Shown one piece after another: positions 3,308 through 42,554 of a stretch of DNA of 47,135 nucleotides. Under the pieces are notes generated by a model that made no database searches, had not been told where the DNA came from, and saw only the letters and a program-made list of their open reading frames with translations. Source of the stretch: a virus (Duplodnaviria > Heunggongvirae > Uroviricota > Caudoviricetes); IMG/VR virus record IMGVR_UViG_2541047877_000007; one strand, 5' to 3'. Position numbers and translations under genes: made by a program. Positions within the stretch are counted from its first letter, which is position 1; every line of letters begins with the position of its first letter.

Positions 3308-3883
3308 CTACGGCAGTGCTGGCCATTCAATATCCTGTGCAGTTGACGTATCAACACGGTTCAGCAATACCCGATACTTTTTCCATGCTTCCAGCAACGA
3401 GATTTCTTCCTCCGTTGCAATTTCCAGATCTGCAGCATCCTGAAGCGGCGCAATATGCTCACTGGCTACCTGCATCAGGTTGTTTTTTGTTTCTTCCGCC
3501 TCCCGGATCCGGAACAGTTTTTCTGCTTCCGTATCCTTCACCCAGGCTGTGCCGTTCCACTTCTGAAACTCCCCTTCCGGGGATAACCAGGTGACATTTT
3601 CCGGTAATGGGCCAAGTTCAGAAATAAATAACGCGTCGCCGGAAGCCACGTCATAGACGGTTTTACCCCGATGATCTTCAACGAGATGCCACGATGCCTC
3701 ATCACTGTTGAAAACAGCCACGAAGCCAGCCGGAATATCTGGCGGTGCAATATCGGTACTGTTTGCTGGCAGACCTGTATGAGGCGGAATATATGCGTCA
3801 CCTTCACCAATAAATTCATTAGTTCCTGCCAGCAGATTATAAATTTTTATGGTCCGTGGTTGTTCACTCATTCTGAATGCCAT
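3308..3883 (-). CDS. tfa: tail fiber assembly protein Tfa
   Basis: 191 aa, N-terminus [24 protein letters not shown] matches recalled lambda Tfa; start overlaps the stf stop. Confidence 0.9.
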
Positions 3884-7539: not shown

Positions 7540-8235
7540 TCTTACCAGCCGCGCCCTAACAGGCGCACACGATCTGACATTTGCATCCAACTTCGTTACT
7601 TACGGCCCGTAAACGGGCTGCCCGGATAGGGAATCGATAACTGCTCTCCCATTTTATCCTCTTCAAGCTGGTGCTTTATGTAATCCTGTATCTTCGCCGT
7701 GTTCTTACCCACTGTATCGACGTAGTACCCTCTGCACCAGAACTCCCTGTTCCTGTATTTGAATTTCAAATCACCAAACTGCTCGTAAAGCATCAGACTG
7801 CTTTTCCCTTTCAGATATCCCATAAACCCGGATACGCTCATTTTAGGCGGGATCTCCACAAGCATATGGATATGATCTGCACAGCATTCAGCTTCCAGAA
7901 TCCGTACGCTTTTCCACTCACACAGCTTTCTCAAAATACTGCCTATTGCTCTACGCTTCTCTCTGTAGAACACCTGTCTTCGGTATTTTGGCGCAAAAAC
8001 TATGTGATATTTACAGTTCCATCGGGTGTGCGCTAAGCTCTTTTCGTTCCCCATTGGGACCCCCTTTTGATTTCTTGTTTGACACTTGCAGTTGCCAGAC
8101 CGCAAGGTGTTTTAACAAATCAAAAGGGGTTTTAATAACTGGCTCAAAGCTGAAAGCTTTCCGGAACCCCCAGCCTAGCTGGGGGTTTTCTGTGCACAAA
8201 AAAGGCGTCATTTCTGACGCCCGTTCTGGGTTATA
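7540..8235. mobile_element. IS200-type insertion sequence (IS200/IS605 family) between J and lom; boundaries approximate
   Basis: About 700 bp carrying only a Y1 transposase gene; end region has a 13-bp inverted repeat (ccccttttgattt / aaatcaaaagggg) overlapping the transposase RBS plus two further hairpins (8166-8186, 8204-8221), matching the known IS200 left-end organisation. Confidence 0.6.
7596..8054 (-). CDS. tnpA: IS200/IS605-family Y1 (HUH) transposase TnpA
   Basis: 152 aa from ATG 8054; HUH motif (HIHMLVEIPP) and typical IS200 TnpA size. Confidence 0.85.
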   Translation of the reverse strand: MGNEKSLAHTRWNCKYHIVFAPKYRRQVFYREKRRAIGSILRKLCEWKSVRILEAECCADHIHMLVEIPPKMSVSGFMGYLKGKSSLMLYEQFGDLKFKYRNREFWCRGYYVDTVGKNTAKIQDYIKHQLEEDKMGEQLSIPYPGSPFTGRK

Positions 8236-28765: not shown

Positions 28766-29036
28766 GATGTTACCGTAGTATGTGAGTATCCATCGAATAG
28801 ATACCAAGCAAAAAAGCTCCCGAAGGAGCCTTCATTTTCACTTTTTTAAATCCAACGACAGACGGCTGGCATTTAAGTATTGTGAAATATTATCAAATGT
28901 AATCATCATTGATTTACAAAAGATACATTTTGCCCCGAAAGGATTCATGTCAGAAACATCAAAAGATGATGTTCTATACTGGGAACCATGACAACACGGG
29001 CATCTAAAGTGAATATGGTTTGTAATATTGTCTACC

Positions 29037-29249
29037 TCAAAGCGCCACTACATGAACAGCGGCAGGACCTTTAGGTCCGTTCTCAATACCAAATTCAACT
29101 TCCTGATTCTCAGTTAATGTTTTGAAATCGTTGCTCTGAATTGCTGAGAAATGGACAAACACATCTTTGCTGCCATCTTTCGGCGTGATGAAACCAAAAC
29201 CTTTTTCAGGGTTAAACCATTTCACTAAACCAGTCATTTTGTTAGACAT
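29037..29249 (-). CDS. cspI: CspA-family cold shock protein
   Basis: 70 aa with RNP motifs KGFGFI and VFVHF; symbol from position next to the spanin genes as in Qin. Confidence 0.85.
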
Positions 29250-29612
29250 AATTATTACCTTTTGAAGAAATTAGCCCTTGGGCAGAATGGTCCGAAAAAA
29301 AATATCAGAGAGAAAAACCAACAAGGAAATCTCAAGAGGTACAAATAATAAAATTATAACAATGACTGCTTCAGATAAATTTGTAACAAACCAGAACACC
29401 ATTAACGCATGATTAACCACCCATAGCAAGGATTACTTTTGTAAAGAAAAACACAGCAATGAAAGAATAGCTTTATTTATTAATAATAACGTGTCATTCT
29501 GATTAAGACCTTTTATCTTACCCTTAAGATTTCAGGAATTTTGGCTCATGGAAGAGTCCTTTTTATTTAAATTTTACATTCCGCGATGTAAATGTTCCGA
29601 TTTAATATTACC

Positions 29613-31640: not shown

Positions 31641-31921
31641 GAGATTGTGGTGCTTTTTGTGGGAGTCATCCACTTACGCACTTTGTTTTGCCATGCCAGC
31701 AGTTAGCTTCTGCTGTAAAACTATTCATGCAGCAAACCTGCACTTCACCACAATGGTTAGCATACTTTTCCTGATTAAGATTTTGCCAAATATGCTAGCC
31801 ATTGTTTCATGTATTGGACCTCCTTACTTTTTATTAAAGAGATCCAATATTCACTACTCTGTCCGTATCTCTACTCAGGCATCAGCCTTCTTCGTTATCG
31901 TATACAGACGAGCGATGAATT

Positions 31922-32137
31922 TTAATCAGTAATGATGACATTTGCTGCTGCAGGACCTTTAGCACCACTCTCTATAGAGAAGGTAACCTTTTGACCTTCA
32001 AATAAGGTTCGATAATTATCATTCTGAATCGCAGAAAAATGCACAAACACATCTTTACTACCATCAACAGGAGAAATAAAGCCGAAACCTTTATCAGCGT
32101 TAAACCATTTTACTAAACCAGTCATTTTATTTGACAT
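31922..32137 (-). CDS. cspB: CspA-family cold shock protein
   Basis: 71 aa with KGFGFI and VFVHF motifs; symbol from Qin-like order. Confidence 0.8.
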
Positions 32138-32437
32138 TCTACATTCCTTAACTTGAGCCTTTCGGCATAAATGGTTTGCATAACAGAAACGACTTCGTAC
32201 TTAATTGGAGAGACTCAAAGAAGGAATAAGTGAATAACACCTGAAATGAGAACTGCTTTAGTAAACTACTTCGTATATCGTCTGTTCTTCAAACCGACGC
32301 AATCATTAACGCATAGTTGAACATATGAAGCAATGTTTATTTTAGACATCCAGCCATCTTCAACCCCATCAAAAAACTATAGCTTTCTTCAGGAACGTGT
32401 GTATAGTGCGCCAAGTTATCAGTATTAAGGAATTTTT

Positions 32438-35485: not shown

Positions 35486-35602
35486 CAGAATCCTTCCGGA
35501 TAATTAGCTCTCCCCTTTAAGGGACCATCCCTCTTATCCCTGCGCGCTACTTAAGTATTTTTGATTCTATTCCGGCACCGTCCAGATCTTCAAACGCGTT
35601 GA

Positions 35603-35633
35603 AAATAAAAACAAAAACCCGCCGAAGCGGGTT
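35603..35633 (-). terminator. rho-independent terminator of the hok transcript
   Basis: aacccgc-cgaa-gcgggtt hairpin followed on the minus strand by a long T-run, about 70 nt after the hok stop. Confidence 0.7.
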
Positions 35634-35701
35634 AAGTGCGGGTGCGTTGAGGATGCCTGCCACATCAGAGGTGGCGAGGGATTTCTCCCTCGCCGGGTCT
35701 C

Positions 35702-35857
35702 TTACTCCTCAGGTTCGTAAGCTGTGAAGACAGCGACCTCCGTCTGGCCGGTTCGGATTCGTACCTCGCAGAGGTCTTTCCTCGTTACCAGTGCCGTCAC
35801 TATGACGGTTAAACAGATGACGATCAGGGCGATTAACATCGCCTTTTGCTGCTTCAT
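35702..35857 (-). CDS. hok: Hok/Gef-family type I toxin
   Basis: 51 aa MKQQKAMLIALIVICLTVIVTALVTRKDLCEVRIRTGQTEVAVFTAYEPEE; single TM helix and conserved Hok C-terminal motif. Confidence 0.9.
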   Translation of the reverse strand: MKQQKAMLIALIVICLTVIVTALVTRKDLCEVRIRTGQTEVAVFTAYEPEE

Positions 35858-35914
35858 AGCCTGCTTCTCCTTGCCTTTCGGCTCGTAAGAGGCTAACCTA
35901 CATGTGTCTAGCAT
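35702..35914 (-). CDS. mok: mok-like reading frame (N-terminally extended frame sharing the hok stop)
   Basis: In-frame ATG 57 nt upstream of the hok start, mirroring recalled chromosomal mok/hok annotation. Confidence 0.5.
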   Translation of the reverse strand: MLDTCRLASYEPKGKEKQAMKQQKAMLIALIVICLTVIVTALVTRKDLCEVRIRTGQTEVAVFTAYEPEE

Positions 35915-35960
35915 GAAATTGGCCTCAGATTAATGTTAAGCGTCTTGCAGGACGCGTAAT
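35860..35960 (+). ncRNA. sok: expected position of a Sok-like antisense RNA (approximate)
   Basis: Inferred only from hok/mok organisation; ends and promoter not identified. Confidence 0.25.
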
Positions 35961-36531
35961 GTTAACTGGGGCTTTTCTCTATCTGCCTTTGGTGTTCATG
36001 CCCGAGGCAGATAGCCTCAAGCACCCGCAGCCATTCTACTTAACTACCGTTACCTCGCCAATATGAAATCAGTCAGAAAGGCGATCCATAAGAACAATAG
36101 CAAGACAATAAATCGCCATTACAGCCGTAATAGCCAGCGCACATTTGAGAACCAGCACCACAACCTCCTGTATTGGACGTAGACCAGTCCTGATGAATAT
36201 GAGGCTGTCTCGTCAGTGATTCAATACAACTATTGGGTATAGTTTCTCTGATTTTTTCTGTGGAAATGGGGCACAACCACTAGTCACCACCAGCACTTCT
36301 TTTAATACGCAAAGTCCGACACAAGCTAACCTTCTAGTCCGCTTTGAGCGAAAAACAGCCATAATTTAGTGCCACGTATATAATGATAGAGCTATTCAAG
36401 CTAGCAATTCACATGTAAAAATTCAGAGGGTAGAAGCACATAGTTATAAATGTTGGCTCCATCGACAAATTGCGGTCTCAAGTACATTTATTAATGTTGC
36501 CCCCGCATTAACAAATCATCAAGGTGACGAC

Positions 36532-38319
36532 ATGGACGATATTAATATCAGCCTCGACGAACTTAACACTATTGATTTATCCCCCTTAATCCAGAGTAAG
36601 CTGCCAGTTACCTGCTTTGATATCACAAAGTATCTTTCTAGCCTAGGTGATGGAAGAGCGGAGATAAGACTGCTAACCCATATTTGCGGTTTTCACTTTC
36701 GTCCCGAAAATCCACAGGTACCATTTGGTCCGTGCTTTCAAAGCAGCCAAGGTAGATCTGCAATTCCGGATGACATTAACGGGTTGTCGCTGGAGGTACT
36801 TTCTCAATTTTGCCCGACGATAGAGCTACCCGAACTTCAAGCTCGTATTGCTGATACACTTTGGGTTCGTAAAATTGGTGGAATCCGTTTTCCTTTGCTG
36901 GCAGTCCGTGCTTATTATGCGTCCAGTATAGCTATTATGACATCGCAAGGGACGTGGGTTAGTGCTTTAGAACGCCTAGAGCGTGCGCTTAGGCTGTGTT
37001 GTTTTTTTCGAAAGAATACTGATTTCAGGGATGAATTTGATCAGCTTTCGGCACATCTACTAGCAGAGTATGAACGTACCAGAGAACAAGGCGATTCACC
37101 TTATCCGCTGCGACTCCTGCAACTCGATATCGACTGTAAAGTGAGTGAGCCATCTTTTATTGCCCAGGAACTCCTGTTTCTGACAAAAAACTATCTGGCT
37201 CAAAAATTATTTTCATTTGCCGTCGATGCCTGTAAAACCGCAATCACGATTGCGAATAGGTGCTGTGACAGAGATACACAGTTTGAATTCTGGCGGCTTC
37301 TTGCCGATACACATCTGGAAGAGTCAAAATTCCAAGATGGCGGTATGATTTCGGCAGCCTGCATGCAGAATGCTATTGAAGCACTGGCTAATATTCCAGG
37401 AACCCGAATAGAACGTCTTGCGCTGTATGAAGAAATGCGTGATTACCAAATCGAATCCCGTCACCAGATGTCTATCCTTCAGTCTCCCCCTCAAGATATT
37501 AGTGAGATTGTCCATCAAGCCAAGAGTCGGGTAGTCGGAAGAGATATGTTTGATATGGTTTTCAGACTTGCGATGCTGGTCTGTCGGCCAACCAGCATTG
37601 AGAGACTTAAGGCTCAAGCAATAGAACAAAAGGCCAACAGCATAGCTTGGATGTTTGGATCAACACATATTGATCATGAGGGAATGACACTTGCTCGCAT
37701 ACCCGCAGGATTGGGGATTGATGATGCAAATGGGGCAGTTATTTGGCCCATAATGATGACGAGAATGCGTATCGACCATGAGTTGGCAGTAGCTGGGCAA
37801 ATTATTCCTGCTACAGATGAGATCACAATGAAATATCCAATCTCGGAGGCGTTTTTTCGCGATATGTTCATCAATCATCCCTTCATCCCGTTTGGGCATG
37901 AAGAGTTTTTCATCAAGGGTATGGTTTGCGGTTTCAATGGAGATTTTATGACGGCATGCCACGTGTTGATTCCCCAGATCGAAAATAGTCTGAGATATGT
38001 GGCTAAAATTAAAGGTGAGGAACCATCGCAGCTTCACGGGGACGGTTCGCAAGAGCGAAATGGACTCAAGGGATTACTAGATAATCCACTGATTATTGAA
38101 GCTTTCGGCGTAGACATAATTGGCAATCTTCAGGCCTTACTGGTAGATAAAATCTATGGTGATTTACGAAATCAACTAGCTCACGGATATGTGCCTGCCG
38201 GTTACTACAATCAACCTCCCTGCATTTTTGCATGGTGGCTTGTATTGCACATTCTAATGAACCCTACGGCGAGATACTGGCAAGCCACTTATGGCCAAGA
38301 GAGTGAGGCTCAGACTTAA
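36532..38319 (+). CDS. orphan 595-aa protein with C-terminal HEPN-like R-N-x-x-x-H motif
   Basis: AAGGTGA RBS 4 nt upstream of ATG; motif DLRNQLAHG at residues 544-552 (38161-38187); visibly lower GC than flanking phage genes; no other family motif recognised by eye. Confidence 0.8.
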   Translation: MDDINISLDELNTIDLSPLIQSKLPVTCFDITKYLSSLGDGRAEIRLLTHICGFHFRPENPQVPFGPCFQSSQGRSAIPDDINGLSLEVLSQFCPTIELPELQARIADTLWVRKIGGIRFPLLAVRAYYASSIAIMTSQGTWVSALERLERALRLCCFFRKNTDFRDEFDQLSAHLLAEYERTREQGDSPYPLRLLQLDIDCKVSEPSFIAQELLFLTKNYLAQKLFSFAVDACKTAITIANRCCDRDTQFEFWRLLADTHLEESKFQDGGMISAACMQNAIEALANIPGTRIERLALYEEMRDYQIESRHQMSILQSPPQDISEIVHQAKSRVVGRDMFDMVFRLAMLVCRPTSIERLKAQAIEQKANSIAWMFGSTHIDHEGMTLARIPAGLGIDDANGAVIWPIMMTRMRIDHELAVAGQIIPATDEITMKYPISEAFFRDMFINHPFIPFGHEEFFIKGMVCGFNGDFMTACHVLIPQIENSLRYVAKIKGEEPSQLHGDGSQERNGLKGLLDNPLIIEAFGVDIIGNLQALLVDKIYGDLRNQLAHGYVPAGYYNQPPCIFAWWLVLHILMNPTARYWQATYGQESEAQT

Positions 38320-38416
38320 AGTGAATAAGTTTACGAAGTTGGCACTTCCGGATGCATGTCCATATGAGTTGAGGCGATTTGGTTAATAAGGTTGAGTGCT
38401 GCTGAAATTATTCGAT

Positions 38417-38440
38417 GTCCGCTTTTGGCACAAAGCGGAC
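38417..38440. terminator. hairpin between convergent genes (possible bidirectional terminator)
   Basis: 9-bp perfect stem gtccgcttt / aaagcggac with 6-nt loop, between the 595-aa ORF and the minus-strand 133-aa ORF. Confidence 0.45.
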
Positions 38441-38537
38441 AACCACGCCAGATCTACCCTGTGCCATGAAAAATGAGAATGTCAATTCACTCCTGAACTA
38501 ATGCTTTTTAATCTAGTAACGTCTAAAATACCTAACA

Positions 38538-38939
38538 TTATCCCTGATAAAATGCCAGTATGCGCTGCATAACTTCACTCATCCGGCACTCGCGACAGAT
38601 TATGTTTAGGCGACTGTCGTAGCGACGTATTTCTCCATCAGGTAACGACCAGATAAGGTCCGGATCAACCACAGCTGTTTTCTTCACCTTTGCCCTCGAG
38701 AGTTTTTTGCGGGCGTTTTGCCAGTCCTTACGCGCCTGTTCAGACGGGAATAACCCGTAGCCGGAGTTGTATACATCGCCACTGGCTACCAGCTCTCTGG
38801 CAAGAACGCTCATCAGATATCTAGTCGCACCTGTTTTAGCTTCCAGTTGCCGTAACGTCTCACGACCGCTCTGGCGCACGAGTTCCACCACCTGCCCTTT
38901 AATTTTTTCCCGCTCTTCTTGTGTAAAAACTTTTGCCAC
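38538..38939 (-). CDS. hypothetical protein downstream of the replication initiator
   Basis: 133-aa ORF, basic, no motif recognised. Confidence 0.45.
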   Translation of the reverse strand: MAKVFTQEEREKIKGQVVELVRQSGRETLRQLEAKTGATRYLMSVLARELVASGDVYNSGYGLFPSEQARKDWQNARKKLSRAKVKKTAVVDPDLIWSLPDGEIRRYDSRLNIICRECRMSEVMQRILAFYQG

Positions 38940-42068: not shown

Positions 42069-42554
42069 AACTGTGGTGATTTTAAGGATACCACCTCGCC
42101 TGACGTGGTTAAAAGCAGGCACACAACACGAAAGCGCACGGCGAAGTTCGTCTCACTGTACGGTGTCGTCAAATTTAATTCGACCGTGCGCTTCCGGTTG
42201 TGGCAACCCGCGAAATGGCGCGGCGATAAGTATGGCGGGGTTATTCCTTCCCCGTTGAGGACACCGAGTTGTCAGGTTGACCATACGCTTAAGCGACAAC
42301 CCCGCTGCAACGCCCTCTGTTATCAATTTTCTGGTGACGTTTGGCGGTATCAGTTTTACTCCGTGACTGCTCTGCCGCCGTTTTTAAAGTGAATTTTGTG
42401 ATGCGGTGAATGCGGCTAAGCGCACGCGGAACAGTTAAAACCAAAAACAGTGTTATGGGTGGATTCTCTGTATCCGGCGTTAATTGTTAACTGGTTAACG
42501 TCACCTGGAGGCACCAGGCACTGCATCACAAAATTCATTGTTGAGGACGCGATA

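Follow-up and report, generated by a model that had tools for sequence, protein, structure and literature searches.

The hok/sok/mok locus of plasmid R1 (IncF) is the paradigm of RNA-controlled type I toxin-antitoxin modules, and its hok mRNA has been described in two conformations, a full-length and a 3'-truncated one, that differ in the pairing partners of the tac, ucb and mok Shine-Dalgarno (SD) sequences (PMC9841398; the names of the tac, ucb, dcb and fbi elements are used here as in that paper). The closest studied relative of the locus presented here is hokW-sokW (mokW) of the Stx2 prophage Sp5 (phage VT2-Sakai). This locus has been established experimentally as a type I system: the sokW promoter, the dependence on RNase III and Hfq and a role linked to induction have been reported, and HokW is 44% identical to the Hok protein of R1 (PMC8621323). 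For the hokD gene of the Qin prophage of K-12, passages in two papers (PMC12214031, PMC7232551) state that the gene was inactivated by a rearrangement, and they attribute this finding to Pedersen and Gerdes 1999. Overexpression of the HokD coding sequence is toxic (bioRxiv 10.1101/2025.08.07.668861).

Our analysis reveals that the window, i. e. the whole stretch of 47,135 nucleotides under study, carries a full hok/mok/sok locus on the minus strand (35611-36061), located within a lambdoid prophage of the Qin/mEp460-like type, in its early-right region. The signal is real and far beyond chance: A search of the whole window with Rfam yielded a full-length match to RF01794 on the hok-sense strand (35852-36026; 116 bits, E=7.8e-26), and the predicted mRNA folds with a z-score of -7.95. 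All parts of such a module could be assigned: the hok promoter, the 5' tac, the leader hairpin, ucb, the SD and ATG of mok, the Sok promoter within mok, the SD and open reading frame of hok, the 3' protective stem-loop, fbi and an intrinsic terminator. We regard the locus, with a probability of about 0.88, as a complete and apparently intact module of the hokD/hokW subgroup, for which we propose a mechanism similar to that of R1 and Sp5. The initial annotation had recognized a complete hok/mok-type locus from the letters of the DNA alone, and this view is confirmed, since every element is present and conserved. In itself the locus is nothing new: It is a complete hok/sok module of the ordinary kind, as carried by many E. 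coli lambda-like prophages.

The toxin is encoded by a 51-aa open reading frame (35702-35857, minus strand) whose product matches HOK_GEF (PF01848, E=3e-23) over all 42 positions of the profile. K-12 HokD has the identical sequence, and the two share the accession WP_000813254, annotated as HokD in RefSeq. An SD sequence, AGGAG (35867-35871), precedes the gene, and the corresponding CAAGGAGAAG is invariant in 9/9 homologues. As had been noticed initially, hok has an in-frame upstream extension resembling mok: The 70-aa mok frame (35702-35914, minus strand) contains hok and has annotated counterparts in MokW of VT2-Sakai (70 aa) and HannyBb and in MokC (69 aa); in the R1-type plasmid locus, the extension is likewise open and in frame with hok. 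The mok SD, GAGG, can be read 8 nt 5' of the mok ATG (35923-35926), and GAGGC is invariant across the homologues. RefSeq labels only the 51-aa "HokD" coding sequence; neither mok nor Sok nor any of the RNA elements is annotated there.

The full-length hok mRNA is predicted to comprise about 416 nt (35611-36026, minus strand). Its 5' end was placed at G36026 based on the alignment with the R1-type locus and on the start of the Rfam model, and its 3' end probably lies at the T-run of the terminator. Transcription would start from a putative promoter at 36033-36061, with TTGGCG (36061-36056) as the -35 box, a 17-nt spacer and TAGAAT (36038-36033) as the -10 box. This promoter has 9/12 matches in the consensus scan, with a -35 box that is weak by consensus, and its -10 box aligns with the -10 regions of the R1-type locus, hokC and the phage homologues. 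The mRNA begins with the tac element GGGUGCUUGAGG (36015-36026), whose predicted partner is fbi in the full-length form and ucb in the truncated form. It is followed by the 5' leader hairpin (35979-36014), a 10-bp stem present in both folds with the arms CTATCTGCC (36014-36006) and GGCAGATAG (35987-35979); two of its pairs change on both sides among the homologues. The inverted repeat described here by the initial annotation is thus present, although its position, given as 35976-36015, had to be corrected to that of the two arms. The ucb (anti-SD) box AAGCCCCAG (35966-35974), with a GCCCC that is invariant in 9/9 homologues, would pair with the mok SD region (35922-35928) in the full-length and with tac in the truncated mRNA. 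In the fold of the truncated mRNA, the mok start codon is covered by the Sok target hairpin CAUG-CUAGACA-CAUG (35900-35914), which exposes CUAG in its loop. This segment is the most variable part of the leader among the homologues (alignment columns 125-146), as would fit a specificity determinant. Downstream follows dcb, the downstream complementary box GCCUC (35889-35893), which is predicted to pair with the mok SD once the mRNA is truncated; GCCTCTTAC is again invariant in 9/9 homologues.

At the other end of the mRNA, a perfect (9/9) inverted repeat, GGCGAGGGA-GAAA-TCCCTCGCC (35673-35694), forms a stem-loop in which 5/9 pairs change on both sides among the homologues; by analogy to R1 (PMC9841398), it may protect the end of the processed mRNA. 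The fbi (fold-back inhibition) region at 35640-35665 consists of CCUCAACGCACCC (35652-35640), the predicted partner of tac, and of 35653-35665, which would pair with the mok start region; both pairings are visible as long-range inverted repeats and in the full-length fold. Finally, a sequence scan identified an intrinsic terminator hairpin, AACCCGCTTCGGCGGGTT (35616-35633), with the adjoining T-run TTTTTGTTTTT. It begins 68 nt after the hok stop codon, in good agreement with the distance of about 70 nt noted initially.

The antisense gene lies on the plus strand. The predicted Sok promoter (35871-35899) consists of TTGCCT (35871-35876), a 17-nt spacer and TAACCT (35894-35899), and its sequence TAGGTTAGCC is identical to that of sokW in Sp5. 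Since TAACCT scores only 3/6, the promoter stays below the threshold of a generic consensus scan; we assign it based on its identity to the -10 region of sokW, in which the same bases have been mutated (primers YO-421/422) to give a promoter-less construct that causes growth retardation (PMC8621323). The Sok RNA itself (35906-35980, plus strand) was placed from this promoter and from the homology to sokW, where the probe YO-592 falls into the corresponding region (PMC8621323). It is predicted to be about 70-76 nt long, with ends estimated to within a few nt, and to cover the SD and ATG of mok on the opposite strand. Its predicted fold (-30.3 kcal/mol, z=-5.27) has a single-stranded 5' tail, a long hairpin and a U-rich tail. 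An RNA of roughly 65 nt, as initially expected, would be too short for this subgroup, which has an extra hairpin insert. The Rfam match, although named "sok", was rejected as the antisense RNA: It reaches 116 bits on the hok-sense strand as compared to only 18 bits, in another register, on the plus strand, and the model therefore describes the leader of the hok mRNA in its tac/ucb conformation. Weak matches in the region to isrK, rsmX, P9, ceN48 and Fungi_SRP were also discarded; they fall far below the gathering scores and are accounted for by the 3' stem-loop and terminator or by the leader hairpins.

The predicted folds reproduce both conformations of the R1 model. The 416-nt mRNA, with a minimum free energy of -174.8 kcal/mol (the z-score given above refers to shuffled sequences), contains the tac/fbi and ucb/mok-SD pairings, the former in both the minimum free energy and the centroid structures. 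The 3'-truncated RNA of 362 nt (z=-6.17) contains tac/ucb and mok-SD/dcb instead, and agrees with the 116-bit match to an Rfam model that encodes the tac/ucb stem. When the first 24 nt were hybridized in silico with the last 30 nt, the duplex reached -30.6 kcal/mol as compared to -14.6 +/- 3.3 for shuffled sequences. This duplex is predicted in 9/9 homologues. In the seven copies from phages and prophages it is strong, at about 3.4-5.4 sd below the shuffles; in hokC and the R1-type locus the distance is only about 1.6-2.2 sd. The alignment with known hok loci that had been proposed initially spans the -10 box to fbi and includes R1-type hok, hokC/mokC, hokW of Sp5 and five phage copies. It revealed conservation of the Sok -10 region as well as of GCCCC in ucb, GAGGC at the mok SD, GCCTCTTAC at dcb and CAAGGAGAAG at the hok SD. 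Across the nine homologues, the fraction of paired cells is 91%, and changes on both sides are seen in 25 pairs, as compared to 7.2 +/- 2.2 for the shuffled and 4-9 for the slid controls; these numbers refer to a structure derived from the window's own sequence, which favours that structure, and to a set in which 7/9 sequences share 88-99% identity with the window, which leaves few independent changes.

Thus, the elements are present and conserved, the predicted folds fit the model, and a homologous locus has been validated by experiment. By analogy to R1 hok/sok and Sp5 hokW-sokW, transcription of both RNAs, processing at the 3' end, coupled translation, toxicity and a biological role can be expected here as well, and the following scheme is proposed: The hok mRNA would be made from the TTGGCG-17-TAGAAT promoter. 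In the full-length mRNA, the 5' tac would pair with the 3' fbi while ucb hides the mok SD, so that neither translation nor Sok binding could occur. Slow trimming of the 3' end back to the GGCGAGGGA/TCCCTCGCC stem-loop would remove fbi, upon which tac would pair with ucb, the mok SD would enter the dcb stem, and translation of mok and coupled translation of hok might become possible. The unstable Sok RNA, expressed from TTGCCT-17-TAACCT on the plus strand, would bind the mok start region, block translation and cause cleavage of the duplex. Once Sok synthesis ends, the 51-aa Hok would be made and damage the inner membrane. The most likely role would be that of hokW-sokW: Prophage induction may result in the loss of Sok and in the production of Hok, which would then assist in lysis and in the release of the phage. 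Alternatively, the locus might serve prophage retention or phage exclusion.

The intact appearance of the hok locus does not prove that it is active. It is conceivable that the locus is structurally complete but silent, with Hok hardly or never released, and that the phage backbone carries it along as a neutral passenger rather than as a working module for addiction or for assisting lysis. Intact-looking chromosomal hok loci that show neither post-segregational killing nor activation by rifampicin would be a precedent (Pedersen and Gerdes 1999, as cited in bioRxiv 10.1101/2025.08.07.668861). Moreover, the hok and Sok promoters are both weak by consensus, and a 5'-3' duplex of -30.6 kcal/mol, as compared to -19.4 for the R1-type locus, could lock the mRNA. 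However, all regulatory elements are conserved in phages and in thousands of genomes, and compensatory changes occur in them, which argues for selection on the RNA switch, and the 93.5% identical hokW-sokW locus is active and affects phage release (PMC8621323). We therefore consider a silent passenger unlikely.

A second possibility concerns the position of the locus. The hok gene together with the 175 nt preceding it is part of a conserved phage backbone that is shared with the phage HannyBb; homology to HannyBb breaks at 36201/36202, where a variable slot (36202-38541) begins. In the window, this slot harbours a gene for a 595-aa protein (36532-38319, plus strand), which is not part of the toxin-antitoxin module; other prophages hold different cargo there. 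Between the DUF977 gene and hok, we observed the PDC-S39 gene, another HEPN protein, a pair of an AAA ATPase and an HNH protein, QueH, a methyltransferase (the occupant in HannyBb), relBE or Paa. An unannotated ORF for a putative hydrophobic protein of 29 aa (36069-36158) is conserved just upstream of the hok promoter. It is tempting to speculate that hok/sok, as the constant border of a hotspot for cargo genes in Qin/mEp460-like lambdoid prophages, might retain or regulate the cargo rather than be just a stand-alone toxin-antitoxin module, possibly with the 29-aa protein as a partner, but we regard this idea as quite improbable.

The 595-aa protein combines DUF7380 and DUF4209 (PF24098 and PF13910; E=2e-34 and 3e-8 for the two Pfam matches) and corresponds over residues 43-581 to the PADLOC candidate system PDC-S39 (PDLC05012, E=8.4e-103). 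DUF4209 has been placed in the HEPN superfamily (PMC3710099), and an RNQLAH (Rx4H) motif in the translation fits the HEPN consensus Rx4-6H. Our search of the literature for functional studies of DUF4209, PDC-S39 or DUF7380 returned only the HEPN classification and two listings as a candidate system, with no report of an anti-phage activity. The initial annotation had joined this gene and hok into one compact accessory islet, and a co-inherited and functionally coupled defence islet might be suspected, as the two genes are adjacent and divergent, about 470 nt apart, and both classes have been linked to phage defence. This is adjacency only: The homology break in HannyBb separates the two genes, the cargo next to the same hok differs between prophages, and the PDC-S39 gene occurs in 148 of 5426 complete E. 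coli genomes as compared to 4278 with the complete hok leader. In addition, hok genes are not enriched near defence systems genome-wide (bioRxiv 10.1101/2025.08.07.668861). Based on the distribution and the break points, we reject the single islet, which seems very improbable to us.

Finally, the locus might be the decayed remnant of a relB-relE-hokD operon that has lost relBE, and the one point in favour is the arrangement of K-12 Qin itself, also mentioned in the initial annotation, in which hokD is the last gene after relB-relE; this reading can safely be dismissed, as the segment missing in K-12, including mok and the Sok promoter, is homologous to the leaders of R1, hokC and phage hokW, K-12 homology ends at window position 35871, inside the Sok -35 box, the complete leader is far more frequent than the K-12-type relE-hokD junction (1166 of 5426 complete E. 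coli genomes), tblastn detected neither RelE nor RelB in the whole window (best E-value > 1), in line with the initial observation for the surroundings of hok, and the papers cited above treat K-12 hokD as the rearranged form. The reverse is the case: The K-12 form is the derived, truncated one, and the window represents the complete form, which is present, often in several copies, in about 79% of the complete E. coli genomes. As the rearrangement is already mentioned in the passages cited above, this contrast is not new.

The complete hok/mok/sok module described here has little importance past its correct annotation. The label "HokD" suggests the K-12 picture of a defective gene linked to relBE, and K-12 is the exception at the hokD-type locus. 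In strains such as 118UI, whose copy is 100% identical, or ATCC 25922, which also has the gene for the 595-aa protein, the hokD-type locus is suited to test a hokW-type role in assisting lysis in other lambdoid prophages.

Among the known systems, K-12 hokD (relF) has an identical Hok protein, and its DNA agrees at 99.3-99.5% with that of the window over a stretch that starts 14 nt before the hok ATG and includes the 3' UTR, rem, ydfU and ydfT; in contrast, the hok promoter, tac, the leader hairpin, ucb, the mok start and the Sok promoter are missing there, and relE-relB is found instead. The chromosomal hokC/mokC/sokC (gef) locus shares about 75% nucleotide identity over the whole mRNA, an identical 5' end (GGGTGCTTGAGG) and an in-frame Mok, but it resides at a fixed site, the nhaA-dnaJ interval, outside any prophage and lacks the hairpin insert of about 18 nt in the Sok region. 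The R1 locus aligns element by element and has the same predicted two-state switch. It differs in its plasmid location, in the lengths of the leader loops, in a Hok that is only distantly similar, in the weaker fold-back duplex and in the lack of the GCGTC...GACGC hairpin, which makes Sok of the window longer than that of R1. The deposited genomes of the phages HannyBb and Tritos contain copies that are 94.8-99.4% identical to the window locus, with HannyBb at 99.4%. With hokW-sokW of Sp5, the locus shares 93.5% nucleotide identity over 416 nt, the order of all elements, a 70-aa in-frame Mok and a lambdoid prophage as the host; tac, the leader hairpin, ucb, the mok SD, dcb, the Sok -10 region, the hok SD and fbi are identical. 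The two copies differ in four residues at the C-terminus of Hok (...FTAYEPEE in the window as compared to ...FVDYESEK), in several bases of the Sok target segment around the mok ATG, in their flanking genes and in the sequence beyond fbi: A clear intrinsic terminator is present there in the window and absent from the corresponding place of the Sp5 copy.

The hok/mok/sok locus at 35611-36061 (minus strand) is of an already known kind and effectively a known locus, of the hokD/hokW type. The window consists of an E. coli lambdoid prophage of the Qin/mEp460-like type, and the chromosome of strain 118UI matches it with 100% identity across the query. Rfam matches to the sRNA DicF (42329-42380, plus strand), to two cspA-type thermoregulator leaders of cspB/cspF-like genes (29010-29395 and 31906-32298, minus strand), and to STnc490 (8064-8187) and IS009 (3342-3540), both on the minus strand, are consistent with a Qin-like prophage. 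Around hok, the genes for a Cro/CI-type regulator, a YdaT-family protein, an O-like protein and a DUF977 protein come first on the minus strand, followed by the gene for a 595-aa protein on the plus strand and then, again on the minus strand, by hok, rem, a hypothetical gene, ydfU (DUF968) and the Q-type antiterminator gene ydfT.

The initial annotation had proposed a complete hok/mok-type locus; this interpretation is supported, and all the features that it listed are present. A 51-aa ORF (35702-35857, minus strand) encodes a Hok/Gef toxin (PF01848, E=3e-23) that shares its protein accession with K-12 HokD, and this ORF is extended upstream in frame to a 70-aa mok ORF with its ATG at 35914. 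The hok promoter (TTGGCG-17-TAGAAT, 36061-36033, minus strand) precedes the inferred 5' end of the hok mRNA, a G at 36026, and these leader elements, with names after PMC9841398: tac (GGGUGCUUGAGG, 36026-36015), a leader hairpin (36014-35979) formed by the inverted repeat CTATCTGCC/GGCAGATAG (arms at 36014-36006 and 35987-35979), ucb (AAGCCCCAG, 35974-35966), the Shine-Dalgarno sequence of mok (GAGG, 35926-35923) and dcb (GCCUC, 35893-35889). These are followed by the hok Shine-Dalgarno sequence (AGGAG, 35871-35867) and ATG (35857); beyond the stop codon (35704-35702) lie a 3' stem-loop (35694-35673), fbi (CCUCAACGCACCC, 35652-35640) and, 68 nt past the stop, the terminator hairpin with its T-run (AACCCGCTTCGGCGGGTT, 35633-35616). 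The Sok promoter (TTGCCT-17-TAACCT, 35871-35899) is on the plus strand. Rfam model RF01794 ('sok') matches in full length at 35852-36026 (minus strand, 116 bits, E=7.8e-26). Since this match is on the hok-sense strand and the plus strand yields only 18 bits, the model describes the hok mRNA leader; the match is thus ruled out as the antisense RNA itself. Alignment of nine loci (the window, HannyBb, Tritos, Sp5, PPompW, PhiR12_3, a P1-like phage, hokC and an R1-type IncF plasmid) revealed homology from the hok -10 box through fbi. Codon Tyr47 of hok (UAC) sits in the context GCUUACGAA (35714-35722, minus strand); low-level A-to-I editing (Tyr to Cys) has been reported for K-12 hokD, whose coding sequence is the same (PMC12214031).

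For a 416-nt RNA, the predicted fold (-174.8 kcal/mol, z=-7.95) pairs tac with fbi, ucb with the mok Shine-Dalgarno sequence, and the mok start region with 35653-35665. A 362-nt RNA ending just past the 3' stem-loop is predicted to fold differently (z=-6.17): tac pairs with ucb, and the mok Shine-Dalgarno sequence forms a stem with dcb, closed by the loop CUAGACA. The two predicted folds correspond to the closed and the open state of the R1 hok mRNA (PMC9841398). On the predicted structure, 91% of the cells of the nine-sequence alignment pair, and 25 pairs are changed on both sides (shuffles give 7.2 +/- 2.2 and slid controls 4-9), a count made on a structure derived from the window's own sequence and with mostly close relatives. 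All nine homologues are predicted to form a 5'/3' duplex, which reaches -30.6 kcal/mol in the window (-14.6 +/- 3.3 in shuffles); far weaker are those of hokC (-20.6) and the R1-type locus (-19.4), with values only some 1.6-2.2 sd below the respective shuffles. Sok RNA is predicted at about 35906-35980 on the plus strand, with an unpaired 5' tail, then a long hairpin and finally a U-rich tail (z=-5.27); it exceeds the length of some 65 nt suggested initially. An extra GCGTC...GACGC hairpin is present in the window's subgroup and absent from hokC and PPompW. The most variable part among the homologues is the leader around the mok ATG, the segment read by the Sok 5' tail, which would fit copy-specific antitoxins in multi-copy genomes.

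A tblastn search of the whole window with K-12 RelE and RelB gave no match (best E above 1), as had been noted before. The published K-12 rearrangement explains these 'missing' genes. The alignment with a K-12-type genome is near-perfect from downstream of rem to 35871, inside the Sok -35 box of the window and 14 nt upstream of the hok ATG, where K-12 runs into the 3' end of relE. K-12 hokD therefore has no hok promoter, leader, mok start or Sok gene. This break is the 'genomic rearrangement' to which PMC12214031 and PMC7232551, citing Pedersen and Gerdes (1999), attribute the inactivation of K-12 hokD. Among 5426 complete E. coli genomes, 4278 carry the 205 nt that run from the promoter up to the hok ATG (coverage of 80% or more; median copy number 2, up to 10), and 1166 carry the relE-hokD junction. 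The complete form is the commoner one; that of K-12 is derived.

The proposal that hok and the 595-aa gene (36532-38319, plus strand) form one islet did not hold. HannyBb is homologous across hok and the 175 nt upstream of it; the homology is lost at 36201/36202 and returns at 38541/38542. In between, HannyBb carries a DNA methyltransferase and a hypothetical gene. Comparison of six loci (L002, L004, which is HannyBb, L007, L011, L012 and L013) shows that the slot flanked by the DUF977 gene and hok (36202-38541), which here contains the 595-aa gene, varies in its cargo among related prophages: others with the same hok flank contain another HEPN protein, a pair of AAA ATPase and HNH endonuclease, or QueH, K-12 has relBE with ydfV and flxA, and in phage PPompW a gene for the adhesin Paa/AdfO lies upstream of the hok copy. 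The 595-aa gene is found in only 148 of the 5426 genomes, including ATCC 25922, and is interrupted by IS4 in one. Its product contains DUF7380 and DUF4209 domains, the latter assigned to the HEPN RNase superfamily (PMC3710099), carries the HEPN Rx4H motif RNQLAH close to its C-terminus and is a match for PADLOC candidate PDC-S39 (E=8e-103); a literature search found no functional study of these domains or of PDC-S39.

An unannotated hydrophobic 29-aa ORF (36069-36158, minus strand; MLVLKCALAITAVMAIYCLAIVLMDRLSD, counted from the second GTG) has an AGGAGG Shine-Dalgarno sequence 5 nt upstream, and its end is 8 nt short of the hok -35 box. Tritos and HannyBb keep this ORF, with changes that are synonymous or conservative, its DNA is also matched in mEp460_ev081 and Evi, and searches of Pfam and NCBIfam gave no match; the product could be a small membrane protein. 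In the HannyBb record (L004 3323-3612), two small 'hypothetical protein' CDS opposite hok overlap the leader and promoter; the corresponding window ORFs (about 35959-36182, plus strand; 35 and 39 aa) look like automatic over-calls.

We infer that the window locus is active as a toxin-antitoxin system of type I, leaving about one chance in ten that it is silent, because some intact-looking chromosomal hok loci have been reported to be inactive in killing assays. Identity with the window locus is 99.4% for HannyBb, 94.8% for Tritos, about 88% for the copies of P1-like phage-plasmids and about 75% for chromosomal hokC/mokC. The closest experimentally studied relative is hokW/mokW/sokW of phage VT2-Sakai (Sp5), with 93.5% identity over 416 nt, which experiments have established as a type I TA: HokW is neutralised by sokW, in partial dependence on RNase III and Hfq, and mutation of the sokW -10 box results in growth retardation (PMC8621323). 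After mitomycin C treatment, sokW is lost and HokW is produced in a RecA-dependent manner, and deletion of the locus halves phage release (PMC8621323). The deletion primer YO-351 of that study has one mismatch to the window leader, and the bases altered in its promoter-less sokW construct (TAGGTTAGCC) are identical in the window.
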